A stretch of 64,000 bases of DNA from assembly GCA_963844245.1 (NCBI GenBank), contig CAWJNJ010000012.1, positions 12,339 through 76,338 of the forward strand. Reading direction: 5' to 3'. Positions 16,621 through 31,528 of this stretch are shown piece after piece; the stretch's first letter is position 1; every line of letters begins with the position of its first letter. The notes under the pieces are model-generated. The model ran no database searches. It had not been told where the DNA came from and worked only from the letters and a program-made list of their open reading frames with translations. A program made the position numbers and the translations under genes. The stretch is from an uncultured Acidobacteriota bacterium. Its GTDB lineage: Bacteria; Acidobacteriota; Vicinamibacteria; Vicinamibacterales; 2-12-FULL-66-21.

Positions 16621-18537
16621 TCATCCGTCTCCGACAGTCACTTCCAGGCCGACTGCGCGCATCAATGCGAGCGCGTTGCTCCGCGTCACAGGACCGGGTT
16701 TGATTCGGTAGTCGAAGGTGATGGCGTCCGCCTCGAAGCTGTCATCGAAGTGGATGTTCGATGCGAGCAGGTCCGGTTCGTCCGCTATAGCAGTGAGTGC
16801 CAGGTCATGCGTCGTGATCATCCCAATGGCGCCCCTGCCGAGAAGGCTGCGCAGAACGCCACCGGCACCGATCAACCGGTCGTGAGAATTGGTGCCGTGG
16901 AAGATCTCGTCTAACAGAAACAGGAGCGGCACGGGACCGTTCGCGATATCGGCCAACCTACGGATGCGCGAGATCTCCGCGTAAAAGCGCGAGCGGCCTT
17001 CAAGAAGCGAATCCTGTATTCGGAGCGTCGCACCAATCGCCAGCGGCGAGAGCCGAAGTGATCGGGCACGTACCGGCGCACCCGCGAGCGCCAGAACGGC
17101 GTTGATGCCGACCGTCCGGAGCAGGGTGCTCTTCCCCGACATGTTCGAGCCGCTGACGACGAGGAGTCTCGTCTGGTCGGAGAGGTGGACGTCGTTGCGC
17201 ACCACGACGGCACGCGGCAGCAGCGGATGCCCGAGCTGCATGCCCTCGAACACGGCGTTCTTCTGCGGCCCCGGATTCGTCCCGACCAGCTCCGGGAAGG
17301 GATCTTCCGGGTGCTCGAAGTGATAACACCCGATTGAACTGAGCGCCTCGAACTGCGCGATCGTTTCAACCCACAAGCGAACATCGCGGCCGTGGACGCG
17401 GCGCCAACGCTCGACGGCGAGCGCGAGGTGGGGGCGGACCAGGACGAGCAGCCCCCCGACACAGATCGCTGCTCCGACAATCCAGACCTGACCGGAGTAG
17501 GCGCCGAGCAAAAACAGACCGAGCGGAACCGCGGCTGCGTTCTCCTGCGAATCATTCAGTTCCGAGAGGCGATTCAGACGCTGGATGATGCGTGACGCGG
17601 GTTGACCGCCACTCACCAATCCAGATTGCAGCTGCACGAGGCGCGTGCTCTTGAACCGAGCGCCCTCCAAGTGTTCCAGCAGCTCGCCGAGCACGCCCAG
17701 TTCCAGGGCGCGATGACCCAGAACGTCCGCGACGAAACCCGCGGTGGTGCCGGGCTCCGAGGTGGACAACATCGCATCCAAATCGGATCTGAAGCGGCGC
17801 ATCGCCAGCACATGCAGGACCACCACGGCTGTGAGCGGCCACCACACGCCGGTGACGGTGAAATAGAGGATGGCCGCCAGGATGGCCGCCGTGAACAACC
17901 AGACGGCCACGCTGACGGTTTGCCGCGGCGGCGTTGGCGACTCGGCCCAATCGAGCAGACGGTCGGTCCGGACGCTCACGCGGACGTCGATGCCGGAGAT
18001 CGCCAGTCGCTCGCGGAGGTCCAGTTCGGAGGCGAGCTCCTGGACCGCCACCTGCCGCGCCTCGATCTCCGGCGGATCGGCCGCAGTGGTCAGCCACCCA
18101 GCCAGCATGGCCTCGCCGGTACGCGTTCGGGCCAGCGACAAGAGTTCGAACAATGAACCCGGACCGAACAGATCCAGGTCATTCGCATACACGTGGCCAT
18201 CGTCGCGAAAGCGTTCCCCGGGGTCGCCAGTCCCTGCCCATCGGTCGTCCAGTCGTGCGATGCCTCGCTCGTAGAAGGCAATACGCCTGACCGACACCTC
18301 ACTGGCACGCAGAATGCGCGCGTGCCGCCACACCAGGTAGGCGAAGATGAAGGCCGGGGCCACGAGCCACCACGCACTGACAGTGGCCTGCCAGACCATC
18401 ACGGCGACGACGACGCCACTCACAAACGTCGCTAGCCTGCCGTAGGCGATTCGCGCTTCAGCGGCGGTTGAGATCTCAAAGGCGGCACGGCCAGCTTCCA
18501 GGCGGGCTTGGTACTCCTGTGCGGGGCGGCGAAGCAT
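16621..18537 (-). CDS. Membrane-anchored MutS-related ATPase (domain V only)
   Basis: N-terminal TM helices; SGSNMSGKSTLLR, SRFYAE, FLLDEIFHGTNS, ITTHD. No mismatch-binding domain recognised. Confidence 0.88.
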   Translation of the reverse strand: MLRRPAQEYQARLEAGRAAFEISTAAEARIAYGRLATFVSGVVVAVMVWQATVSAWWLVAPAFIFAYLVWRHARILRASEVSVRRIAFYERGIARLDDRWAGTGDPGERFRDDGHVYANDLDLFGPGSLFELLSLARTRTGEAMLAGWLTTAADPPEIEARQVAVQELASELDLRERLAISGIDVRVSVRTDRLLDWAESPTPPRQTVSVAVWLFTAAILAAILYFTVTGVWWPLTAVVVLHVLAMRRFRSDLDAMLSTSEPGTTAGFVADVLGHRALELGVLGELLEHLEGARFKSTRLVQLQSGLVSGGQPASRIIQRLNRLSELNDSQENAAAVPLGLFLLGAYSGQVWIVGAAICVGGLLVLVRPHLALAVERWRRVHGRDVRLWVETIAQFEALSSIGCYHFEHPEDPFPELVGTNPGPQKNAVFEGMQLGHPLLPRAVVVRNDVHLSDQTRLLVVSGSNMSGKSTLLRTVGINAVLALAGAPVRARSLRLSPLAIGATLRIQDSLLEGRSRFYAEISRIRRLADIANGPVPLLFLLDEIFHGTNSHDRLIGAGGVLRSLLGRGAIGMITTHDLALTAIADEPDLLASNIHFDDSFEADAITFDYRIKPGPVTRSNALALMRAVGLEVTVGDG

Positions 18538-18714
18538 GGGCTATTGTGGCGCAAGGCTCGCCAGTCGGGCGGATTCAACTGCGGGACTGATAGGGATCGG
18601 GCCCTGGCCGCCCAATGAGCCCTGGGGAATCGATAATCCTGTGTGGGGCGGCGAAGCATGGGCCATTGTGGCGCAAGGCTCGCCAGTCGGGCGGATTCAA
18701 CCGCGGGACCGATA
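18515..18714. repeat. Direct repeat, two ~78-bp near-identical copies
   Basis: TCCTGTG(C/T)GGGGCGGCGAAGCATGGGC(T/C)ATTGTGGCGCAAGGCTCGCCAGTCGGGCGGATTCAAC(T/C)GCGGGAC(T/C)GATA at ~18515-18592 and ~18637-18714. Confidence 0.9.
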
Positions 18715-18745
18715 TAGTCCTCCATGAAGCCCAGCCGCCGAGCCC

Positions 18746-19390
18746 TCAGCGCCGGTCCATCACGGCCGCCTGAACTCTTGCAATCATCTCCTTCAACTGC
18801 GGATCGATCGTTCCCTTGAAGACTTCGTCCGCACCTTTGAGCAGCGGCCTCGCCGATTGGCCCGACACTTCGAAGATGGCACCGTAGTGGATCTGATATC
18901 GCCCGGGCTCCTTGCCTGGAGTCTCACGCAGGAACAAGAGAAACTCGGCGCCATCGTTGATTGCTTCACGGTTGTAATCTGTTCCGCGGACCTGGACGCC
19001 GACCAACACCACGTCGCCGCCATAGACCGTCAGGATGAGCGGCGTCCCCTGGCCAGGCCGCCCTTTTGCCACCATGGCAAAAGCGCCCGCAATCACTCTC
19101 GGCGCACGAATCTCGTAGTCGGTGAGGATGTGATCCCCTCCCGGTGCAACATAGCTCTTGAGTTTCGAGAGTCTAGCCACCAACACGACAGTCGCTTCTC
19201 GAGACACTGTCGCGATTTCCGTCGGCCAATAATCTCCGGGAGGTGCCGGTTGGTTCAATGGCACGCCGGGGTTCTCCATCGACTGCTTCCGGGCCTGGTC
19301 GAGCAGGGCGCTTTGTGTGCCCGTGACAGTTGCCCCATCCACAAGGGGTGCGACGATGAGCGGCCAAAGGAATTTCATCGCGTAGGACAT
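18746..19390 (-). CDS. Hypothetical, probably exported protein
   Basis: 214-aa ORF with protein-like composition and a hydrophobic N-terminus; no family recognised. Confidence 0.55.
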   Translation of the reverse strand: MSYAMKFLWPLIVAPLVDGATVTGTQSALLDQARKQSMENPGVPLNQPAPPGDYWPTEIATVSREATVVLVARLSKLKSYVAPGGDHILTDYEIRAPRVIAGAFAMVAKGRPGQGTPLILTVYGGDVVLVGVQVRGTDYNREAINDGAEFLLFLRETPGKEPGRYQIHYGAIFEVSGQSARPLLKGADEVFKGTIDPQLKEMIARVQAAVMDRR

Positions 19391-19470
19391 TCACCAATCT
19401 ATAGGGAAGGCTGGCTGAGAGTTTTTCCACCTATCCTACCGCCCCTGACAACCGTGCTTGCGCGCGACGT

Positions 19471-20142
19471 CTATCGGTCCTGCCGCTTCAGCACCAGCAT
19501 GCAAAACGACCGAAACCACTCGACCGCGCTCAACAGCCATCTGGGCACCCCGAGATCGACGAGCTTCTGTCGGATCCGTTGACGAAACGCATCGTTGGTG
19601 AGGTAGTCGGGCGGGCGTCGTAGCTGCCGGCATGCCTGATCAATCAGGTCGCCGGGCTCGGGAAGGCGCCGTGCAAATGCGAGCTCGCGGCGAAAGCATA
19701 CCTTCTCGATTCGCTCGCGGAGTTCGGCTGTGTATGCGAAGCCTTTGGCCTCCAGACGAGCATGCGTGCTTTCGTGAACGAGGATCGACGCGATCTCAGC
19801 TGGGGATGTACCTACCTTGCGCACGTGAGTCTCCTCGAGAATGACGAGGCGCTCTTGTCGACGCCAGGATCCTAGCCCGCCTGCCGTCGCAAAGACGAAG
19901 ACACCGTTTGCGTATCGGCCAATATCGCGGAAGGCTTCGCCGCTGTGGTCTTGGACAAGGGCGAGTGCGGCTGTGATCCTTCCGAATACTTCCGCGTTTG
20001 GCTCGTCGCGGCACAGAGCGACGCGGAACGCCCAGGATCTCGCGGCACTCGGCGCGCCGGAACATCCACTCCACGACCCAAGCAGATGCCGACTTCTTGT
20101 TCGAATCCCTACACCCTGGGACTCTTCCAGCCGCAGCATCAC
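19471..20142 (-). CDS. Hypothetical protein with HExxH motif; start uncertain, likely frameshift near 20025
   Basis: ASILVHESTHARL followed by E..CFRRE. Confidence 0.5.
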   Translation of the reverse strand: MMLRLEESQGVGIRTRSRHLLGSWSGCSGAPSAARSWAFRVALCRDEPNAEVFGRITAALALVQDHSGEAFRDIGRYANGVFVFATAGGLGSWRRQERLVILEETHVRKVGTSPAEIASILVHESTHARLEAKGFAYTAELRERIEKVCFRRELAFARRLPEPGDLIDQACRQLRRPPDYLTNDAFRQRIRQKLVDLGVPRWLLSAVEWFRSFCMLVLKRQDR

Positions 20143-20432
20143 CGGACCGAGGACGAGAGGTGTAGGGCTGATGGTCTTCGACAGCGGCTGGCATCAGGGC
20201 AAGAAGCGAGCAAGCCTGATGCCCTGCAATTCTGTGGATTCTCGGTCGTTTTGACGCTACGCCACGTCAATGCTGAGCGGCGCATTACAAAGTTGGTGTT
20301 AGAAGGTCAGACTCATCGAGCACGCACCGAGGGTCGGCCTGCGCCGCTAATGATTGCAGCGACTCACCAAGCGGAGATCGCCAAGTGAGGTAGGTAACCC
20401 CCTCGATGCCCGTAGCGCGGCCGTGGACTCCA

Positions 20433-20789
20433 TCACCAGTCCGACAAGCGCGACCCGTCAGTGGCGTGTCCCATAGCGCCGCTCTTTACGTCACTGATCG
20501 CCGTCGTACTTGCGGCCGGAATCAGGCGCCACGTCTGTGAGGATTTGGTGAACGGGTCCTCTGGCACGCTCCTTAGATACTTCCGTTCAACCAGCGCCGC
20601 CAGAGAGGGCGGCTCAACGCCATTCTCGCGCCGGAAGGCGTCGATCGCGTCGCGCATCCTGAAAAGATGCGAACTCAGCGTTGCCTCGCGAGTCCGGGCC
20701 CATGCCCGCTGGTAGTGGCTCACTCCAGACACAATGGTCCAGATCAGAAGGGTGCCGGCGATAACAATCCACATCTTGCGGCGCGTCAT
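20433..20789 (-). CDS. Type II secretion pseudopilin G-like protein
   Basis: TM segment then REATLSSHLFRMRDAIDAF..PPSLAALVERKYLRSVPEDPFT. No G|FTLIE prepilin site. Confidence 0.7.
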   Translation of the reverse strand: MTRRKMWIVIAGTLLIWTIVSGVSHYQRAWARTREATLSSHLFRMRDAIDAFRRENGVEPPSLAALVERKYLRSVPEDPFTKSSQTWRLIPAASTTAISDVKSGAMGHATDGSRLSDW

Positions 20790-20876
20790 GCGTTTCTGAC
20801 GACGATGCCAGCTCCGAGGTTGGAGAAACGTACGGTCTCCGAGCCAACGCTCCGGCCCGTGCGGTAAGCTCCCCAA

Positions 20877-20922
20877 GAGTTGGGTTTGGAAGTTGGGAGT
20901 TGGGAGTTGGGAGTTGGAGTTG
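20877..20922. repeat. Heptamer tandem repeat (GGGAGTT)n
   Basis: GAGTTGGGTTTGGAAGTTGGGAGTTGGGAGTTGGGAGTTGGAGTTG. Confidence 0.85.
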
Positions 20923-20952
20923 ACCGCTGTCCCGTGAGTCTGCGGGTCTGAT

Positions 20953-22113
20953 GTGGCGGATCGTCGCGATCGGCGCCGCGTGGACGGCGCGTGGTGGCTG
21001 CTCATCGGCGCCTTCATCGCCGGGGCAATTCCCGGCGGCTGGCTGACGATCGTCGCCGTGGTCGCCGTCATCATCCTGCCGCTGTTGGTGCTGGTGCAAC
21101 GGTTCCGCGGTGCCTACCCATCGGCGTGGACGCGGCTGTTCGTCTTCCGGCCGTTCTGGTACGCCCAGCTGGCTGCACCGCTGGTCGCGATCGGCGCCCT
21201 CGCTTGGCTTCCTCATCGGACTGCCGTTCGGGATGGGCCTCGTCGCCGCGCGCTGGACCGTCGTTGTCGTCGGCAGCCTCTTCGTCGTCGGCGCGGTCGC
21301 CGGCTACATCGGTTCGCGACTGCTGCGCGTCAAGTCGCTCGAGGCGCACTTCCCTCACCTGCCTGATGGATTGATCGGACTCCGCATCGTCCAGGTCTCC
21401 GACCTGCATGTGGGTCCGCACACGTCGACCCGATTTCTCGCGCGGGTCTCGAAGGCGGTGACGGCTGCGGCGCCGGACCTCCTCGTCATCACCGGCGACC
21501 AGGTCGACGACTACGCGGAGGATGTCTCTCACTTCGCCGCTGCGTTCACCGGCCTGCGCGCGCCGCTCGGTGTGTTTGCGGTCGCGGGCAATCACGACGT
21601 CTACGCTGGATGGGCGGAGGTCCACCGTGGCATGAACGCCGATGGGCATTCGGGTTCTCGTCAACGAGGCCGTGCAGTTGTCGTATCGGTGGTGTGCCGT
21701 TCTGGCTGGGAGGCACAGGGGATCCTGCAGGCGTCGGCGGACCGCTTGGTCCGGATCGCTCCGTCGCACCAGACGTCCCCCGAACGCTCAGCGGCATCCC
21801 CGCGGGTGCGTTCACGATCGTCCTCGCCCACAACCCGGCACTGTGGCCGAGCCTCGCCGAACGCGGTGTTCACCTGACGCTGAGTGGCCACACGCACTAC
21901 GGTCAGCTCTCCATCCCTCGAATCGGATGGAGCCTCGCGTCACTGTTCCTGGAGCACGCGATGGACTGGCACGCCCGCGATCGGTCGCTGCTCTACATCA
22001 ACCCCGGCACCAACTACTGGGGCCTGCCGCTCCGCCTTGGCGCGCTGCCAGAGGTAACGATCATCACACTGGCGCGCGCCGGCACTGAAAGGCCCGAGAT
22101 ACGGTCGGCATAG
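20953..22113 (+). CDS. Membrane metallophosphoesterase (YkuE-like), two frameshifts
   Basis: QVSDLHVG, ITGDQVD, GNHD, LAHNP, LSGHTHYGQ, PLRLGALPE across three frames. Confidence 0.85.
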
Positions 22114-22144
22114 GAACACTGACTGGTCGTTTGAAGTCAGGGTT

Positions 22145-23062
22145 GTGCGGCGGTACAATCTCGCCCGGAGGGATAGCCATGAGGACGCGTCGCTGCTGTT
22201 TCTGACCGCCCTATCGTGCACGGCCTGGTTGCCGCTCGCCAGCCCGCTCGTCGCGCAAACCCAACCGACAGCCGCATCGGTGCCGCTGCCGAACCAGCCG
22301 GATTCGTTCAGATTCGCCGTCCTCGGAAATTCCGGCACCGGCGAGCAGGCCCAGTACGAGCTTGCCGACCAGATGGCCGCGCTCCGCGAGCGTTTCAAAT
22401 ACGACGCCGTCATTCTTCTGGGCGACAACATTCAAGGCAACGAGCGGCCGCAGGATTTCGTGAAGAAGTTCGAGGCGCCTTACAAACGGCTCCTGGACGG
22501 GGGCGTGACGTTCCACGCGGCACTCGGGAACGAAGATTCGCCAGAACAGCGCTACTACAGGAACTTCAGCATGAAGGGAAACCTGTATTACACGTTCGAG
22601 CCGCGGCCGGACGTGCAGTTCATCGCCTTCCAGAGTACGTATGTCGACAAGGACCAGATCCAGTGGCTTGAGGCGACGTTAAAGAGTTCGAAGAGTGCGT
22701 GGAAGATCGTTTACCTGCACCACCCGCTCTACTCATCCGGCCGCCGGCACGGCTCCGACTCGAGGCTGCGCGCGGAGCTCGAGCCGCTCTTTATCAAATA
22801 CAACGTCAGCGTCGTCTTCAGCGCGCACGACAACATTTACGAGCGAACCAAGCCGCAGAGCGGCATCACCTACTTCGTCGTCGGTTCCGGCGGGAAGGTC
22901 CAGCAGGGGGACATCGACCGCAACAGCGGACTGACCGCGAGCGGGTTCGACACGGACCTGGCATTTCTGGCCGCGGAGATCATCGGCGATCAGATGCACT
23001 TCAACACGATCTCCCGGACTGGAGAGGTGGTCGACTCGGGAGCGCTCTCGCGGCGCAAATAG
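22145..23062 (+). CDS. Secreted calcineurin-like metallophosphoesterase
   Basis: FRFAVLGNSG, LLGDNI, ALGNED, LHHPLYSSG, FSAHDNIYER, VVGSGG. Start uncertain (possibly ATG 22179 with a frameshift). Confidence 0.82.
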   Translation: MRRYNLARRDSHEDASLLFLTALSCTAWLPLASPLVAQTQPTAASVPLPNQPDSFRFAVLGNSGTGEQAQYELADQMAALRERFKYDAVILLGDNIQGNERPQDFVKKFEAPYKRLLDGGVTFHAALGNEDSPEQRYYRNFSMKGNLYYTFEPRPDVQFIAFQSTYVDKDQIQWLEATLKSSKSAWKIVYLHHPLYSSGRRHGSDSRLRAELEPLFIKYNVSVVFSAHDNIYERTKPQSGITYFVVGSGGKVQQGDIDRNSGLTASGFDTDLAFLAAEIIGDQMHFNTISRTGEVVDSGALSRRK

Positions 23063-23114
23063 AGGCAACGGCCGCTCATTTGACGAGGTGGATCGACAGG
23101 CGTAGTGTGAGTTA

Positions 23115-23248
23115 GACGCCTAAGACGCTCGATAGAGCGTCGCGGGGGACCCAAAGGGCGCGATGTCGCGCCCAGGGGCGAATGGTCGCAGGACCTAGAG
23201 GACTTCCAACCTCGAGCCCGTCAGCTAACCCCGTCGGCACTTGGAGGT
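23115..23248 (+). ncRNA. Cyclic di-AMP riboswitch (ydaO/yuaA class)
   Basis: Ordered hallmark blocks: hairpin GACGCTC-GATA-GAGCGTC; CGGGGGACCCA (23143-23153); GGGGCGAAT (23175-23183); CTTCCAA (23203-23209); GAGCCCGTCAGCTAACCCCGTCGGC; TTGGAGG (23241-23247). Confidence 0.85.
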
Positions 23249-23253
23249 TCGTC

Positions 23254-25189
23254 GTGTCTGTTGACTCGCCTGTTCAGGCGGCGATCGTGATCGCCGTACC
23301 CTTCGTTCTCCTCCTGCTCGTCATCACCGTGCTCTCGATTCATCGCATCGGTCCCAATGAAGTGGGGCTGGTGATCCGCCGCTGGGGATCCCGGCGAGCG
23401 GAGGGTGGTCCTATCGCCTTTCATGGCGAAGCCGGGTATCAAGCGGATCTGCTGATGCCAGGCATCGCCGTGCGCATCTGGCCGATGAACCGTGTCGAAA
23501 AACACCCGTGGGTGCAGATTCCAACCGGCGAGGTTGGCCTCGTCATCGCACAGGCCGGTGCGCCGTTACCCATGGGATGGAAGTCCGGCGTCTACAAGCC
23601 GGTGTTCGGACAGTTCACCGACGTGCGCACCTTCGTCGCCGAGGGCGGACAGCAAGGTGTGCAAAGGCCGGTGCTCCCTCCAGGAGCGATTCTGCCCCTG
23701 CATCCGGTTGCATTTCTGGTGCTCTCGAAGAGCCGCAGTTTTGGCCTGCCGGTCAACGCCGAATACCGCGCCCGCTTCGGGCCCGCGCTCTTTGGACTCG
23801 AAGCCGACGAACTCACGTTGAGGGTGATCGCGCCGGTCACCGACCATGAGAACGGTATCAACAAGATCACCGATGTCGTCGGCATCGTCGAGGTCCTCGA
23901 AGGCGAGCCATTGCCCTCGGGCGACATCGCGTGCCGGATGGGCCGCTTCGATGACGTCCGCGAGATGGAGCTCGCCGGCCGCAGCGACGCGGAGATCGCC
24001 GACGTGTTGATTGGCAATCAGAACGAGCGGCACAACAACTACCAGGACTACCAGAAGTTCCTCGAAAGCGGCGGCCGCATCGGCCTGCAGCACGATCCCC
24101 TGCTCTACGGATCCTATGCACTCAATCCGTACCTCGTTCGTGTTCAGACCGTTCCGATGCTGGTCGTCCGGCAGGGAGAAGTCGCCGTCATCAAGGCCGC
24201 GGTTGGCCAGCCGTCGGAAGACACGTCGGGCGACGAATTCAAATTTGGCTCGATCGTACGGCCAGGGCACCGCGGCATCTGGGAGGAACCACTCCGCACC
24301 GGCAAATACGCGATCAACCCCAGGATCTACCAGGCCGAGATGGTGCCCACCGCGATACTCACGCTCAACTGGGCCGAAGCCGCGTCGCAGGCGCACAACC
24401 TGGACAAGCATCTGAAACAGATCGTGGCCAAGTCCAAGGAAGGTTTCATCTTCAACATCGACTTGCAGGTCCAGATCCATGTCTCCGACAAGCTCGCCCC
24501 CAAGGTGATCTCGATGGTCGGGACGATGCAGAATCTCGTCAACGAAGTGCTGCAGGCGGTGGTCGGTAACTATTTTCGCGACACGCTGCAGGGGATGGCA
24601 GCGGTGCAGTTCATCGAGAACCGCGCCGCCGTGCAGACGCAGGCGCAGAACTACATCGCGGATCAGATCCGGCGCTACAACGTCGAGACCCGCGGCGTGT
24701 ATATCCAGGACGTCGTCCTGCCCGAGGAAATTGTCCGCGTCCTGACCCAGCGCGAGATCGCGAACCAGGAGAAAGCGACATTCCTGGCACAACGAGAAGC
24801 GCAACTGACGCGCATCGACATGGAAAAGCAAGGCGGGCTCGCCGATCGGCAGCGGGACCTCGCCGGTTCCGAGGTCGACATCATCATCAGGGAGAATCGC
24901 GCCCGCGCGCGAAAGGCAGAAGCGGACGGCGAAGCCACCTACATCGAGCAGACCGGCCGTGCGAGAGGCGCGGAAATCGAAGCCGTCGGCCTGGCCCGCG
25001 CGAATGGGTTTCAAGGCCCAGGCGGAGGCGCTTGGATCCGAGGCCACCGGGACGATCAACGTCGTGTCTGAACTGGTGAAGAGCCAGACCCGCTTCGTGC
25101 CCGACATCCTGGTGACAGGGAGCGGTGGTGACGCCACGTCGGCGGGCATCATGGGGTTCCTGCGCGAGTTCCAACGACAGGGGGCGTGA
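23254..25189 (+). CDS. Large SPFH/Band 7/flotillin-like protein; frameshift near 25010
   Basis: N-terminal TM, IGPNEVGLV, repeated GxQ..L.PG units, SKEGFIFNIDLQVQIHV, VYIQDVVLPEE, coiled-coil C-terminus. GGAGG lies 6 nt before GTG 23254. Confidence 0.85.
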
Positions 25190-25214
25190 AGGCTGAGGAA
25201 ATTCTTCGAAAAGT

Positions 25215-25289
25215 TGGTGGGCGCTAATGGATTCGAACCATTGACCCCCGCCGTGTGAAGGCGATGCTCTACCACTGAGCCAAGCGCCC
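25215..25289 (-). tRNA. tRNA-Val (anticodon CAC)
   Basis: Reverse complement GGGCGCTTGGCTCAGTGGTAGAGCATCGCCTT-CAC-ACGGCGGGGGTCAATGGTTCGAATCCATTAGCGCCCACCA: 75 nt, cloverleaf, encoded CCA. Confidence 0.97.
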
Positions 25290-25353
25290 AACTCGTGAAG
25301 AACTCTTAGTTTAGCGCACGGCCTCGCTCACAGGCAAACTTCCGCCTTCGGCG

Positions 25354-25414
25354 AACTTCCAACTACCAATCTCCAACTTCCAATTGGCTTTTGGAAGTTG
25401 GAGGTTGGAAGTTG
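25354..25414. repeat. Inverted heptamer repeat hairpin, possible terminator
   Basis: AACTTCCAACTACCAATCTCCAACTTCCAA...TTGGAAGTTGGAGGTTGGAAGTTG right after the stop of 25416..25964. Confidence 0.65.
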
Positions 25415-25415
25415 T

Positions 25416-25964
25416 TTAGGTCCCCTTGGGCTTGGCGTGCGCGAGCAGGAGCCCCAGGATGCGCGCGTACTCGGTGTCGGCATCGCTGTAGGCCTTGAGG
25501 TAGAGCTCGTCGCTCAGCTTCGCTTTTCTCGAGCCTTCGAACACGTGCGTCTTGTTGTCCCGCTCCCACGAGTCCGGCGGCACGTCGCGTTTCGGCTTCG
25601 CGGCAAAGCCGTCGCCACTCACGTCGCTGGCGACGAGGCGGGATCCCGCGACCGAGCCCCCCATCAGGTCCATGTACAACTCTTTGTATTCCTTCTTCTC
25701 GAGGCGGTAGACGCCGATGTCGGGCGTCAGGAACTTCCCCGATACGACCAGGAGCTGGGCACCGGGAACGTAAATGGCCGCAACGAATCCGCCGCCGGTC
25801 GGATCCGGTGCGGCAAAGCTTTCGAGTTTGGCAGCGTCGAGGAGCTGAGTGAGCTGCCTTGCGAGGGGGCCCGACTTCGACTCCTGGGCGGCAGCGAGTG
25901 TGGGATATGCGATCGCGGCCGCGCACATGACGGCAGCGGCGGCAGACGAGAAGTTCTTGAACAT
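25416..25964 (-). CDS. Hypothetical secreted protein
   Basis: Signal peptide ending LAAA-QES; 182 aa; GAGGT RBS-like site upstream. Confidence 0.7.
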   Translation of the reverse strand: MFKNFSSAAAAVMCAAAIAYPTLAAAQESKSGPLARQLTQLLDAAKLESFAAPDPTGGGFVAAIYVPGAQLLVVSGKFLTPDIGVYRLEKKEYKELYMDLMGGSVAGSRLVASDVSGDGFAAKPKRDVPPDSWERDNKTHVFEGSRKAKLSDELYLKAYSDADTEYARILGLLLAHAKPKGT

Positions 25965-26053
25965 CGGTGGACCTCAGCTGAACCTGTGAGGTCCGGGTTG
26001 TACCACGCCTCCCCCGGGGCGTCAATCAGGGGTTCGGCCCGAGAGCGGCGTGA

Positions 26054-26506
26054 TCAGCCGATAAAGAGCGCGTCGTCTTCCTCGCTGTGACGGCCCGGAC
26101 GGCCGGCGCGGAAGCTGCCGAAACCGCGGAGTGCGGAAAGGCCGGCCTTGAGCGCGGCGACAACCGCGATGCCCTCGCGCGCGGGCGTGACGATGGCGTG
26201 CTGAACCAGCGTCGAGGTTTCGTCGACGCGCCGGGTCAGATCGGTCACCAGCCTGTCGACCTTCTCGGCCTGTGCGGTGGCCAGGGTGACGGTCTTCGAC
26301 GCCTCTTCGGCAATCTCGTTCGCCTTGGCGAGCAGCGGCTTGACGTCACGATGGACGGAGGCCAGGACGTCCTGCGCCTGCTTGGCGACGGCCTGCGCCT
26401 CCTTCGCGATCCGGAGCACCGCGATGATCGCGCCCACCTGGATCAGCGCCATCACGAGCGTCGCGACCGCGATGATCCCGAGGAAGACGCCCGACCACTC
26501 GCTCAC
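26054..26506 (-). CDS. DUF948-like membrane coiled-coil protein
   Basis: One TM followed by heptad helices; coupled to the YtxH gene. Confidence 0.65.
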   Translation of the reverse strand: MSEWSGVFLGIIAVATLVMALIQVGAIIAVLRIAKEAQAVAKQAQDVLASVHRDVKPLLAKANEIAEEASKTVTLATAQAEKVDRLVTDLTRRVDETSTLVQHAIVTPAREGIAVVAALKAGLSALRGFGSFRAGRPGRHSEEDDALFIG

Positions 26507-26814
26507 AGCGCGTCCCCGCCGGTCGGGCCCGGCGCCGGCGGCGTGACACCGGCGGTCTTGGCCTGCTGGTAGGCTGCGCGTCCACGCTCGATGGCCTGGA
26601 CGACGGTGCCACGCTGGTGTTCGACGAACTCGCGGCCCTGGCGCGCCGCTTCGGACGCCTTATCCGCACCCTCGCGCGCCTTCTCGGCCAGTTTCCGCCG
26701 CATCTCGTCACCCGTCGCCGGCGCCATCAGCAGCGCGACCGCCGCACCGGCACACGCGCCAAGGACGAACGACATGATGATGGAGCCCGCCGCGCCGCTG
26801 TCGTTTCTAGCCAT
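26503..26814 (-). CDS. YtxH domain protein
   Basis: FVLGACAGAAVALLMAPATGDEMRRKL. Confidence 0.85.
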   Translation of the reverse strand: MARNDSGAAGSIIMSFVLGACAGAAVALLMAPATGDEMRRKLAEKAREGADKASEAARQGREFVEHQRGTVVQAIERGRAAYQQAKTAGVTPPAPGPTGGDAL

Positions 26815-26847
26815 TCGAGCCTCGCAAAATAAAGTCCAAACCTGGAT

Positions 26848-27888
26848 TTACCAGATGCTGACCCGAACGTTCAGATACTTTTTCGGGTCTTTCTTGATCT
26901 CCGCGATGAGCGAGCGCAGCTCATTCGCAGCGCCGTTCATATTGTCATACAACTGCTTGTCCTTCATCAGCATGCCCGCGGTCCCCTGGCCGGCCTCAAT
27001 CGACGCCACCAGCTTGTCCATTCGCGTGGTAATGCCGTCGAGCCGGTCGTAGATCGCCGTCTCGTTCAGGAGCTTTCCCGCCGTGCCCTGCCCGCTGTTG
27101 ATCTTGCCGGAGATCTGTTCGAAATTCCCTGCCGTCTGCGTCAGCGACTTTGCCATCGCGTCGTCGTGCAGCAACTTGCCGAGGCTGCCCTCGCCGGCGC
27201 GGATCCGCTTGGTCATCTCGTTGAGATTGGTGAGCGCCGCGTTGAACTGCTGGTAGGCCGCGTCGCTCTTCAACAGCTTGCCCGCGGTGCCTTCGCCGCG
27301 ATTGATGCCGGCGATGACGCTCTCGGTAGACGTGAGCAGCGCCGTGAATTCACGGTACGCGGCATCATCGGTCATCAGCTTGCCGATGGTGCCTTTGCCG
27401 GCGCGGATGTCCTGGATCAGCTTCGTCGCTTCCTCGACACCGGCGGTGACCGGGGCCGCCATGTCGGCGATGCCGGAAGCGGCGCGCGTGCTCGGGATGA
27501 AGTCGCCATCCTTCAACGGACGGCCTTCGCCCGACGGCGAGATCGCAATCAGCGGCTCGCCGAGCAGGCTGAGCGCACCGATGGAGGCGCGCGAGTGCTC
27601 GGTGATCCGCTCCTGCATCGACTCGTTCACTTCGAAGACGACTTCGACGTTCGTGCCGACGAACTGGATGTCGGTCACCTTGCCGACGTCCACGCCCGCC
27701 ACCCGAACGACGGCGCCGGTTTTGAGCCCGGCGATGTCGGTGAAGTTGGTCTTCAGCGCGTAGCGCTCCCAGACGAAACCGCCCTGCCCGCCGACGGCCA
27801 GGATCAGCATGGTGGCGAGCCCCAGGGCCGCGACGACGAGGATCCCGATCTTCAATTGCGACCAGGCGAGTGAATGCGTTCGGGCCAT
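26848..27888 (-). CDS. mlaD: MlaD/MCE family protein
   Basis: LKIGILV TM, GLKTGAVVRVAGVDVGKV, repeated G.GT.GKL, DPKKYLNVRVSIW. Confidence 0.88.
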   Translation of the reverse strand: MARTHSLAWSQLKIGILVVAALGLATMLILAVGGQGGFVWERYALKTNFTDIAGLKTGAVVRVAGVDVGKVTDIQFVGTNVEVVFEVNESMQERITEHSRASIGALSLLGEPLIAISPSGEGRPLKDGDFIPSTRAASGIADMAAPVTAGVEEATKLIQDIRAGKGTIGKLMTDDAAYREFTALLTSTESVIAGINRGEGTAGKLLKSDAAYQQFNAALTNLNEMTKRIRAGEGSLGKLLHDDAMAKSLTQTAGNFEQISGKINSGQGTAGKLLNETAIYDRLDGITTRMDKLVASIEAGQGTAGMLMKDKQLYDNMNGAANELRSLIAEIKKDPKKYLNVRVSIW

Positions 27889-27901
27889 CTGTCTAAAACC
27901 T

Positions 27902-28756
27902 CTACGAGAGAAATGCCTCGATGTACTTATCGCGCTTCTGAACCGCGCGCAGCTCGCTCGCGTTGCCTTCGAACGCGATCCTGCCTTCACGCAGCATGAT
28001 GAATTCGGCCTCGTCGGCCTTCGATGCCGGGGCGCGCTCGAAGCGCACACCGTCCGGCCCGTCCGGCAGCGCCATGTGCTCGGCAACGAAGAACGCGTCG
28101 CGGAGCTGGTGCGTTACGACGATGGAGCTGACCTGTTCCAGGTCCCGCAGCTTGATGATCTCCTCGTCGATCGTGATCGAGGTGATCGGATCGAGCCCGG
28201 TGGTCGGCTCGTCATACAGCAGGATCCGCGGCTTGGCGGCCATCGCGCGCGCGATCGCGACACGCCGCCGCTGCCCGCCGGACAGTTCCGACGGCTTGCG
28301 ATCGATGAACTCCGCCAGCCGGACGAAGCCGAGCACCTCTTCGACCCGCTGGTTCGCCTGCGCCCAGGAGACCTTCTGCTCCAGCAGCTTGTAGCCGACG
28401 TTCTCACGAACGGTCAGCGAGTCGAAGAGCGCGCCTTCCTGGAACACCATGCCGAGGTCGCCGCGGACCGCCATCATCTGGTCCTCGGACATGTTATCGA
28501 CCCGTTCGCCATTGACGAAGATGTGTCCGCCGTCGGGCTTCAGCAGCCCGAGAATCAGGCGCAGGATCGTCGACTTCCCCGCGCCGCTCGCGCCGAGGAA
28601 GATCTTGGTGTGGCCGGTCTTCAACGTGAAGCTGATCTCGTCGAGAATCACCTTTTCGTCGAAAGCCAGCGTCACCTTGTCGAAGACGACAATCGGCCCG
28701 CCGTGGCCGAGGGCCTCTTCGAGGAGCGCCGAGCGAGGTTCGCGGTCAACAGCCAT
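27902..28756 (-). CDS. mlaF: MlaF-like ABC ATPase
   Basis: GASGAGKST, FQEGALFDSLTV, LSGGQRRR, LYDEPTTGLDP. Confidence 0.9.
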   Translation of the reverse strand: MAVDREPRSALLEEALGHGGPIVVFDKVTLAFDEKVILDEISFTLKTGHTKIFLGASGAGKSTILRLILGLLKPDGGHIFVNGERVDNMSEDQMMAVRGDLGMVFQEGALFDSLTVRENVGYKLLEQKVSWAQANQRVEEVLGFVRLAEFIDRKPSELSGGQRRRVAIARAMAAKPRILLYDEPTTGLDPITSITIDEEIIKLRDLEQVSSIVVTHQLRDAFFVAEHMALPDGPDGVRFERAPASKADEAEFIMLREGRIAFEGNASELRAVQKRDKYIEAFLS

Positions 28757-29517
28757 CAATACATCAGGAAGATGAGTGCCTTGGTGACGAGAAAATTCAC
28801 CACCAGGACGGCAACGGAGCTGGCGACGACGGCATTGGTGGTCGCGCGGCCGACGCCCTGGGTGCCGCCCGAGGTGCGCAGCCCGACGTGGCAGCCGATC
28901 GTGACGATCGCGAAACCCAGGAAGAAGGGTTTGATCAATCCCATCCAGACGTCCTGGATATACAAGCCGCCGACCACCGAGTTCCAGTAGACGCCCGACG
29001 CGACCTTCAACTGCGTGTAGGTGATGATCCACGCACCGAGCAGGCCGACCCCAACGGAAATGCAGGTGAGCAGCGGCACCATCAGCACGCCGGCCAGGAT
29101 CCGCGGCAGCACGAGCTTTCGAACCGGGTCGGTGCCGAGCGCACGGAGCGCCGCGATCTGGTCCGTCACCACCATCGAGCCGAGTTCCGCCGCGATGCCG
29201 GACCCGACGCGGCCGGCGACCATCAGCGCCGTCAGCACGGGGCCCAGTTCCTTCACCATCGACGCACTGACCAGGCGGCCGACCATCGAGCGCGCGCCGA
29301 ACAGGTCGAGCGTCATGCCCGACTGCAGCGCGAGCACCATCCCGGTGAACAACCCGGTCAGGATGACGACCGTCAGCGAGCCGATACCGATGATGTTCAG
29401 CTGTTCGATGATGTCGCGGTAGTAGAAGGGCCGGGTGACGAGCGACCGTGCCGCCCTGCCGACCATCCGCGCGTACTCCTGGACCTCGAGGAGCGCAGCC
29501 TTGATCCAGTCGTTCAT
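28756..29517 (-). CDS. mlaE: MlaE permease
   Basis: KELGPVLTALMVAGRVGSGIAAELGSMVVTDQIAAL; GVGRATTNAVV. Confidence 0.93.
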   Translation of the reverse strand: MNDWIKAALLEVQEYARMVGRAARSLVTRPFYYRDIIEQLNIIGIGSLTVVILTGLFTGMVLALQSGMTLDLFGARSMVGRLVSASMVKELGPVLTALMVAGRVGSGIAAELGSMVVTDQIAALRALGTDPVRKLVLPRILAGVLMVPLLTCISVGVGLLGAWIITYTQLKVASGVYWNSVVGGLYIQDVWMGLIKPFFLGFAIVTIGCHVGLRTSGGTQGVGRATTNAVVASSVAVLVVNFLVTKALIFLMY

Positions 29518-31528
29518 CAGTTCCGGCTCCCGGCCAGCCCGAGATCCTTCGACCGGAGCTGCTTCACCTTGTCGCGTAGCTTGGCGGCTTTCTCGAACTC
29601 GAGGTTGGCCGCCGCCGCTTTCATCTGCGCCTGCAGCATCGTGATGTGCGCTTCGAGTTCGCCATGCGTCCGGAACATATCGTCATCGTCTTTCGCCACG
29701 GTGACGTAATCGCGCTCGTAAACGCTGCTCATGATCTCATCGATGCTCTTGACGATGGACGTCGGCGTGATGCCGTTTTCGACGTTGTAGGCCTGCTGGA
29801 TCTTCCGGCGCCGTTCGGTCTCGTTGAGGGCGAACTTCATCGAATCCGTCACCCGGTCCGCATACATCAAGGCGCGGCCGTTCACGTTACGCGCCGCGCG
29901 GCCCACGGTCTGGATCAACGAGCCGCCCGACCGGAGGAAGCCTTCCTTGTCGGCATCGAGGATGGCGACGAGCGAGACCTCCGGAAGATCCAAACCCTCA
30001 CGCAGCAGGTTTATTCCCACCGAGGACGTCGAACTCGCCGCGCCGCAGGTCGCGCAGGATCTGGATCCGCTCCAGCGTGTCGATGTCGGAGTGCAGGTAG
30101 CGGACCTTCACCCCGAGTTCCTGGTAGTACCTGGGTCAGATCCTCCGCCATGCGCTTGGTCAGCACCGTCACCAGCACGCGCTCACCGCGGCCCGTGCGC
30201 TCGCGAATCTCGCCGAGGAGGTCGTCGACCTGGCCCTTGACCGGACGGATGTCGATCACCGGATCGAGCAGGCCGGTCGGCCGGATGATCTGCTCGACGA
30301 CGGCGCCGCCCGAATGCTGGAGCTCATACGGTCCCGGCGTCGCCGAGACGAAGAGCTGCTGGCCGACGCGCGCTTCCCACTCCTCGAAGTTCAGCGGCCG
30401 GTTGTCCATCGCGGACGGCAGCCGGAACCCATAGGCGACCAGGACCTCTTTGCGGGACCGGTCCCCGAAGTACATCCCGCGAACCTGCGGCACGGTCTGG
30501 TGGCTTTCGTCCACCACCGTCAAGGCGTCAGCCGGCAGGTAATCGAGCAGCGTCGGCGGCGGCAGTCCGGGCGCGCGGCCGGTCAGATGCCGCGCGTAAT
30601 TCTCGATGCCGTGGCAGTACCCGATCTCCTTGATCATCTCGAGGTCGAACATCGTCCGCTGATGGAGCCGGTGCGCTTCGAGGACCTTGCCTTCAGACTC
30701 CAGCTTCGACCGATACCACTCGAGCTCGGCCTTGATGGTTTCAACCGCGGCCTTGGTACGGTCCCTCGATGTCACGAAGTGGGTCTTCGGGTAGATCGCG
30801 ACCTTGTCGTGACGCTTCTGCGTCTTGCCGGTGAGCGGGTCGAACGACACCAGCTCGTCGACTTCGTCGCCGAACAGTTCGATCCGGATCGCGGTGTCTT
30901 CATACGACGGGACGACTTCGATGATGTCGCCGCGAACGCGGAAGACGCCGCGCTTGAACTCGTGGTCGTTGCGCTCGTACTGGATCTCGACCAGCTTGCG
31001 CAGGATCTGCTCGCGGTCGATCTTCTGGCCCCGCTCGAGCGGCAGCATCATCCCGTAGTACGCCTCGGGTGAGCCGAGGCCGTAGATACATGAGACGCTC
31101 GAAACGATGATGACGTCTCGACGTTCGAACAGCGAGCGGGTCGCCGACAGCCGCATGCGATCGATCTCTTCGTTGATCGTCGCTTCCTTCTCGATGTACG
31201 AGTCGGTGGTCGGAACGTAGGCTTCGGGCTGGTAGTAGTCGTAATAGCTGACGAAATACTCGACCGCGTTCTCGGGAAAGAACCGCTTGAACTCCAGATA
31301 GAGCTGGGCGGCGAGCGTCTTGTTGTGCGCCATCACCAGCGTCGGCCGGTTGACGCGGGCGATGCACTGCGCCACGGTGAAGGTCTTGCCGGATCCGGTG
31401 ACGCCAAGCAGGACCTGCGCCTTGTCGCCACGGTTCAACCCGTCGACGAGTTCGTCGATGGCACGCGCCTGGTCGCCGCGCAGCTCGAAGTCTGTAACCA
31501 GCTTGAACTGGTCGTACTTGGATGACAT
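29517..31528 (-). CDS. uvrB: Excinuclease ABC subunit B; frameshifts near 30020-30135
   Basis: [46 protein letters not shown]-terminal UVR domain FEKAAKLRD. Confidence 0.96.

Follow-up and report, generated by a model that had tools for sequence, protein, structure and literature searches.

A c-di-AMP riboswitch in the leader of an SPFH-protein gene of an uncultured acidobacterium

The riboswitch and the gene behind it

In a 64-kb stretch of DNA from an uncultured Acidobacteriota bacterium of the order Vicinamibacterales (the whole stretch being referred to as the window), a gene for an SPFH (Band_7) membrane protein is preceded by a riboswitch of the cyclic di-adenosine monophosphate (c-di-AMP) class, which an initial annotation had taken for a switch occluding the ribosome-binding site of an SPFH/flotillin gene. 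Infernal scanning of the whole window against Rfam 15 yielded a match to RF00379 (the c-di-AMP riboswitch, ydaO/yuaA class) at 23107-23251 on the plus strand, with 64.1 bits (E-value of 1.5e-12 for the 64-kb window) and with model positions 1-134 of 134 covered. This is well over the gathering score of 38, the check that the initial annotation had set beforehand. Only one other gathering-level match, a tRNA, was obtained in the window, and no Rfam family besides RF00379 appeared in 22900-23500, even at E-values up to 1. The conserved ydaO/yuaA blocks CGGGGGACCCA (23143-23153), GGGGCGAAT (23175-23183) and GAGCCCGTCAGCTAAC (23214-23229) lie in order and exactly where they had been placed before. 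The RNA is a genuine member of RF00379, the class of riboswitches for c-di-AMP, and is predicted to bind c-di-AMP. The aptamer ends 2 nucleotides (nt) before the GTG at 23254, and the SPFH open reading frame (ORF) lies on the same strand (sense). The features of the locus are the following.

23107-23251 (+): c-di-AMP riboswitch aptamer, including the 3′ pseudoknot strand (RF00379, 64.1 bits)
23198-23213 (+): last aptamer hairpin, with stem GAGG 23198-23201 / CCUC 23210-23213 (Rfam structure line)
23241-23248 (+): 3′ pseudoknot strand UUGGAGGU, containing the Shine-Dalgarno GGAGG 23243-23247 (8-base-pair helix with the loop)
23254-25071 (+): gene for an SPFH/Band_7 membrane protein in its present form, starting at GTG and encoding 605 amino acids with an N-terminal hydrophobic helix and a Band_7 domain (Pfam)
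25005 (+): single extra base (T) compared with orthologues, which puts the reading out of frame 22 codons ahead of the stop at 25071 (orthologue alignment)
25006-25189 (+): C-terminal part of the gene, encoded in the +1 frame (...GFKAQAEALGSE...GFLREFQRQGA), whose stop codon occupies 25187-25189 (aligns with orthologue C-termini)
23080-23108 (+): possible sigma-70-type promoter, TTGACG 23080-23085, 17-nt spacer, TAGTGT 23103-23108 (read from the sequence)
25215-25289 (-): tRNA-Val with anticodon CAC, transcribed towards the SPFH gene (ARAGORN; Rfam tRNA, 69.3 bits)

Within the encoded protein, PF01145 (Band_7) matched residues 304-517 with 66.8 bits against a cut-off of 23.6, and PF13421 (Band_7_1) reached 24.3 bits against a cut-off of 24. 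Pfam searches at E-values up to 0.1 returned these two domains only and no NCBIfam model matched the protein. With no flotillin-specific family or domain found, the flotillin label was rejected, and only the SPFH/Band_7 assignment is supported. An orthologue (L030, 91% identical) was modelled with AlphaFold2 from a 17-sequence alignment, giving a low-confidence model (mean predicted local distance difference test score (pLDDT) of 58; 70-88 in the SPFH core) with a helix at 6-30, an alpha/beta core and long helices at 493-595. Foldseek ranked the prohibitin complex 8rrh as the best match to this model (E 1.5e-9), followed by erlin, HflK/C and stomatin, with flotillin complexes coming behind these at the 27th and 47th places. 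Weak sequence matches were obtained to prohibitin 9urz (E 0.0024) and QmcA 8z5g (E 0.0055), and an Atlas search returned 'SPFH/Band 7' clusters only. The window protein therefore shares Band_7 with the cage-forming prohibitin, erlin, HflK/C, stomatin and QmcA, and it may also follow their order of membrane anchor, SPFH core and long coiled-coil helices. Unlike those SPFH proteins, however, it is of ~650 residues, ~270 of which are additional and separate the membrane helix from the Pfam core, a region that matches no family and is modelled at low confidence (mean pLDDT 58).

Close orthologues are 82-93% identical to the window protein, and three of them (L030, L080 and L033) read ...GLARAKGFEAQ...GFLREFQ/R... 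in a single frame. The initial annotation had let the gene run to 25189, where its C-terminal part indeed ends, but that position is reached only across the frameshift at 25005, as the frame from 23254 stops at 25071. A metagenomic DNA contig (run X3; 483 nt, depth 3.94) covering 24832-25173 omits exactly base 25005 and is otherwise ~98% identical to the window, with 8 other differences over 24832-25173; an in-frame form of the SPFH gene exists in a near relative. Of the words in 23000-25300, a fraction of at most 0.18 occurs in any of the sequencing runs compared, so that a lack of cover over parts of the stretch carries no information. RNA-library contigs were also found, one in X18 (153 nt, spanning 23997-24149 and differing at 2 places) and others in X19, which possibly represent DNA carry-over or a relative and were not counted as expression.

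The extra T at 25005 reflects either a true mutation or a fault of the assembly. It swaps the last ~61 residues for 22 unrelated ones, as would befit a decaying locus, with this strain's SPFH gene reduced to a pseudogene and the riboswitch left as an intact remnant that no longer functions. We nevertheless regard such decay as quite unlikely, given that the aptamer is intact at 64.1 bits, that the first ~583 residues, among them all of Band_7, are undamaged and share 82-93% identity with the orthologues, that there is but a single lesion, from which the ~98% identical contig of another metagenome is free, and that single-base insertions are a common assembly error.

The pseudoknot and the ribosome-binding site

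In the Rfam structure line, the last aptamer hairpin carries the terminal loop ACUUCCAA (23202-23209), which forms the 5′ strand of a pseudoknot, and the 3′ strand UUGGAGGU (23241-23248) falls in the unpaired 3′ tail of the model. The initial annotation had paired CTTCCAA (23203-23209) with TTGGAGG (23241-23247), a Shine-Dalgarno sequence 6 nt before GTG 23254. These coordinates are correct, the start codon GTG (23254-23256) lying 6 nt past GGAGG, and the helix in fact comprises 8 base pairs between ACUUCCAA and UUGGAGGU. A helix of this length was reached by 2 of 500 shuffled tails, and the duplex has an energy of -8.6 kcal/mol.

The proposed occlusion stands insofar as the Shine-Dalgarno lies within this pairing, but the pairing is not an element added to the aptamer. 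The CUUCCAA/UUGGAGG helix is the pseudoknot of the riboswitch class itself, because the Rfam structure line and the crystallised ydaO RNA show the same arrangement. In the latter, a 108-nt RNA from Thermoanaerobacter (PDB 4QLM and 4QLN as cited in PMC5393176), the loop CUCCUUC complements the 3′ tail GAAGGAG, and the available part of that paper terms the ydaO pseudoknot stable with many base pairs (PMC5393176). A by-eye comparison with the sequence printed there revealed the same conserved blocks and a loop-tail pairing placed as that of ACUUCCAA and UUGGAGGU, although the crystallised RNA stems from a thermophilic Firmicute and that of the window from an acidobacterium. The ribosome-binding site is built into the fold of the aptamer itself.

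The pseudoknot was compared across 58 leaders with the conserved block, 50 of which are unique. The loop pairs with a purine-rich tail in 50/50 unique leaders, with helices of 5 (n = 2), 6 (n = 22), 7 (n = 21), 8 (n = 4) or 9 base pairs (n = 1). In most leaders the 3′ strand is a GGAG/GGAA element located 5-9 nt before the start codon, the exceptions being two leaders of the potassium importer Kup (L004 and L012) with starts much further downstream. A small covariance model of the hairpin and its flanks, holding no pseudoknot information, was used for an alignment of all 58 rows (A4), in which standard pairs occupy 83.8% of the pseudoknot cells. For the whole structure, 89.8% of the cells are paired versus 84.5% in column shuffles (0/500 of which reach 89.8%), and sliding the partner by +1 lowers the pairing to 60.3%, by -1 to 51.0%. 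The last hairpin is paired in 100% of its cells, and three of its four pairs show changes on both sides. In the pseudoknot, pair 22-59 (AU 46, GC 5, GU 1, other 1) displays one compensatory A-U to G-C change, and the G-C variant (loop CCG, tail CGG) precedes Kup, one KimA-like permease and one permease-like gene without a name. As MAFFT and the covariance-model alignments place the tail in two registers, the pair figures of A4 understate the pseudoknot helix.

c-di-AMP signalling in the genome and the genes behind RF00379 in relatives

The genome from which the window derives (G000; 5.27 Mb in 18 contigs, 95.5% complete) was found to contain one gene with a DAC domain (PF02457, 138.8 bits, contig C5). 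Its product is the diadenylate cyclase CdaA (TIGR00159, 239.3 bits against a cut-off of 188.8, with CdaA_N), so that the cyclase which the initial annotation had wanted looked for is indeed encoded. Downstream of cdaA follow a YbbR-domain (CdaR-like) gene and then the start of glmM. At this locus (L001, G000:C5:617680-621030) the YbbR ORF runs into the first glmM residues, possibly through a frameshift or fusion, and a RES-domain gene lies directly upstream of cdaA on the same strand.

A second RF00379 riboswitch of the same genome (76.9 bits; L002 1501-1649, minus strand, corresponding to G000:C5:437995-438143) precedes a 449-codon membrane ORF (L002 121-1467, minus strand) without a match in Pfam or NCBIfam. 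BLASTP connected this ORF to a KimA-like protein at E 0.006, and the Atlas clusters were named amino acid transporter at 0.98, which serves as a lead only. The ORF may encode a divergent potassium or amino acid transporter distantly resembling APC proteins, and may be cut short by a frameshift.

Scanning 41 related genomes for RF00379 revealed 25 matches in 20 of them. The downstream genes encode Kup (6), KimA-like APC permeases (9), a short SPFH protein (7), the long SPFH protein (2, namely in the window and in genome G006) and a permease-like protein without a name (1). The short SPFH gene, of ~325 amino acids, has an internal stop in one of its seven riboswitch-preceded copies. It is present in 8 of the 41 genomes, all from the family of the window's genome, and is preceded by the riboswitch in 7/7 evaluable cases. 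When species genomes were scanned, 33 short SPFH loci were obtained, all from Acidobacteriota or Vicinamibacterales, 29 of which have the riboswitch block in front. Rfam confirmed 19 of the 20 short loci on which it was run, including three that were motif-negative, and the sole miss is a locus whose 5′ gene end lies off the contig. Altogether the riboswitch precedes 32/32 evaluable short SPFH loci. The strongest SPFH link in Vicinamibacterales is therefore that of the short family, one which the genome of the window seems to lack.

Between the short and long SPFH proteins there is no pairwise similarity (best E 0.72), implying that two SPFH families were recruited separately. The short gene has no conserved gene downstream. 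None of the 41 genomes holds both SPFH genes (the long one occurring in 3, the short one in 8), a zero overlap that is not significant. Replacement of the short gene by the long one in place was considered and dropped, as, apart from the riboswitch and the SPFH region with its overlapping frames, no ORF of 17000-31000 had a match within ~1.5 kb at the other SPFH loci. The window aptamer is 86.1% identical to the leader of a short SPFH gene from the same genus (L023 1501-1647, genome G009) but shares no more than 64-74% identity with those of its orthologues (L030, L032, L080 and L033), which hints that leaders may have been exchanged between members of the regulon.

The long SPFH family itself reaches many phyla at ~60% identity (76 loci in one search and at least 511 relatives in another). 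One 59%-identical homologue, from another Acidobacteriota genome (L230), is preceded by an RF00379 match of 55.4 bits. Among 151 genomes sampled from the phylum, 21 contain RF00379, and the 24 matches that are additional to the earlier ones precede a Band_7 gene (1, in the order of the window), APC permeases (6), Kup (1) and various others. Further targets in the phylum are NAD_binding_9 proteins along with an M28 peptidase, a solute-binding protein and a phosphate-selective porin, among others, and in other Acidobacteriota families the aptamers of L146 and L147 precede genes resembling TonB-dependent receptors. Of 121 Planctomycetota genomes, 13 yielded a total of 15 matches, located before long Band_7 proteins (2), APC permeases (6), TrkH (3) and, for the rest, others. 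Both Planctomycetota Band_7 proteins are full-length homologues of the window protein, one sharing 30% identity across 608 residues (E 6e-63) and the other 31% across 572 (E 1e-76). Another Planctomycetota riboswitch (L255, G280:C100:12453-14598) is followed by an open-ended protein of 627 residues, in which Pfam recognises a universal-stress-protein domain at the C-terminus and nothing else. Because the short family, L230 and the two Planctomycetota homologues all carry the riboswitch, SPFH genes must have come under RF00379 more than once. Two protein families and no fewer than two phyla are involved, the long family alone contributing three separate lineages, and in every case potassium importers stand under the same switch.

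These co-regulated importers are what c-di-AMP would predict, and they bear on whether the aptamer might have drifted to another ligand, or might turn the gene on instead of off. Nothing specific speaks in favour of such a change. Moreover, the conserved blocks agree with the Rfam consensus and with the crystallised c-di-AMP-binding RNA, and the Shine-Dalgarno sits inside a helix of the folded aptamer, so that folding hides it. A changed ligand or direction is thus highly improbable.

Mode of regulation and its meaning

Within 22950-23450 no terminator-like site could be detected (0 found, versus a mean of 0.3 in shuffles), in line with the earlier claim that no terminator follows the aptamer. 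The translational OFF switch put forward by the initial annotation gains support from the comparison of leaders, in which the Shine-Dalgarno coincides with the 3′ pseudoknot strand in 50/50 unique cases. The SPFH gene is monocistronic, because the convergent tRNA-Val comes next. Given the class of the RNA, the conserved and covarying pseudoknot, whose 3′ strand is the ribosome-binding site, the lack of a terminator, the cyclase and the recurring link to SPFH genes, we consider it likely that this leader functions as a c-di-AMP riboswitch and acts on the translation of the monocistronic gene in the OFF direction.

Low c-di-AMP in studied bacteria accompanies potassium shortage or a need for higher turgor. 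In the mechanism that we propose, high c-di-AMP produced by CdaA would cause the aptamer to fold around its ligand, and this ligand-bound fold would allow the pseudoknot to form between the loop ACUUCCAA and the tail UUGGAGGU. Since the tail carries the Shine-Dalgarno 6 nt before the GTG, the ribosome would be excluded and the SPFH protein would not be made. At low c-di-AMP the pseudoknot would be less stable and the gene would be translated. With the Kup and KimA-like importers of the same order under the same switch design, the SPFH scaffold would then be co-expressed with potassium uptake.

Alternatively, the main output could lie at the RNA level, through termination by Rho or through a faster decay of mRNA that is not translated, with the block of translation being either the first step or absent. 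The lack of an intrinsic terminator leaves the Rho and RNase routes available. Furthermore, the same aptamer class lies ~190 nt before the SPFH gene of L230, and several leaders from other Acidobacteriota families (L140, L146, L147 and L149) have GC-rich terminator-like hairpins with U runs after the aptamer, so that the class uses more than one expression platform in this phylum. Against an RNA-level output, the 3′ pseudoknot strand is a purine-rich element in 50/50 unique leaders of the order, mostly 5-9 nt before the start, and a conserved strand in this place would be expected if the ribosome-binding site were occluded directly. We therefore judge regulation mainly at the RNA level to be unlikely.

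A number of observations weigh against a translational OFF switch at this locus. Both the OFF direction and the translational level are deduced from the pseudoknot geometry together with the known behaviour of the class. In the ensemble of nested structures, which omits pseudoknots, the Shine-Dalgarno has a mean unpaired probability of 0.37 and is partly paired already, so that it may be less than fully open in the ligand-free RNA. Owing to the frameshift at 25005, what the switch controls in this strain may be a truncated gene or one in decay. With regard to transcription, a TTGAC and TAnnnT box occupies the same columns in five aligned SPFH leaders (alignment A2), making 23080-23108 a possible sigma-70-type promoter from which transcription would start near 23115, slightly within the 5′ boundary of the Rfam match. 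A scan for consensus promoters, however, called 0 promoter-like sites.

The distribution of the riboswitch in the long SPFH family weighs in the same direction. The motif was detected before 4 of the 76 long SPFH loci, these being the close orthologues of at least 82% identity, and was lacking from the other 72. Rfam was positive for 4 of 20 long loci but for none of the 16 distant ones (0/16), and a further 20 loci gave one positive (L230) and 19 negatives. Close orthologues and the short family thus do carry the leader, as the initial annotation's interest in orthologous leaders had anticipated, but most long-family loci are without it, and within this family the riboswitch link is confined to a few lineages rather than being a family-wide property. 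In L230, moreover, the riboswitch (330-500) ends ~190 nt before the SPFH start ATG at 693, and its tail cannot be the Shine-Dalgarno of that gene. A 63-codon ORF (487-678) begins at the pseudoknot tail of L230, which represents a different expression platform.

As for the surroundings of the window locus, the gene upstream (22145-23062, plus strand) encodes a calcineurin-like metallophosphoesterase (PF00149, 50.9 bits) that does not lie beside other SPFH loci.

Bacillus ydaO/yuaA leaders act by transcription termination. The window leader belongs to the same aptamer class (RF00379) as the Bacillus subtilis kimA (ydaO) and ktrAB (yuaA) leaders, with which the class was founded, and shares their placement in the 5′ leader. 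Unlike these, however, it would occlude the ribosome-binding site without a terminator, and its host is a diderm acidobacterium. A closer parallel is offered by Corynebacterium glutamicum nlpC, for which the available portion of PMC9960051 describes c-di-AMP-dependent control of a reporter, and for which the ligand has been proposed, not proven, to let CTCC pair with the GGAG of the ribosome-binding site as a pseudoknot (PMC9960051). The mechanism proposed there is the one that we infer for the window leader, although the nlpC target is a cell-wall peptidase operon of an actinobacterium and that of the window an SPFH gene. According to the part of the review PMC7266159 at hand, the class targets transporters of potassium and of amino acids as well as genes connected with the cell wall or osmotic shock. 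The co-regulated Kup and KimA-like permeases agree with these targets, whereas an SPFH scaffold gene is absent from the list given in that part of the review (PMC7266159). Our literature search, in which some papers were judged by their title or the start of their abstract, retrieved no paper linking the c-di-AMP/ydaO riboswitch to SPFH or flotillin, and the gene tables of the founding papers may list band 7 genes. The RNA class, its spread over many phyla and the mechanism with the ribosome-binding site in the pseudoknot are already known, and the SPFH target is new. The value of the finding thus lies in the target gene, the switch itself being ordinary.

The functions of most bacterial SPFH (band 7) proteins are still an open question, and in animal cells stomatin cages act on channels and transporters. 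For many proteins, an association with c-di-AMP riboswitches has given functional clues, as noted in the accessible part of PMC7266159. We tentatively suggest that SPFH scaffolds might be effectors of the c-di-AMP potassium/turgor circuit in diderm soil bacteria, a view that we hold to be possible rather than probable. They would be made only at low c-di-AMP, with their cages acting on systems that take up potassium, or on the integrity of the membrane while the cell adjusts osmotically, and the SPFH protein of the window would have such a physiological role as well. If true, this would provide bacterial SPFH proteins with a defined physiological role and an inducing condition. Their predicted condition of expression would be low c-di-AMP, corresponding to potassium limitation or osmotic upshift, and the Kup, KimA-like and Trk systems would be their candidate partners. 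Acidobacteriota are abundant in soil and little studied, and the riboswitches described here extend the documented reach of c-di-AMP signalling in this phylum.

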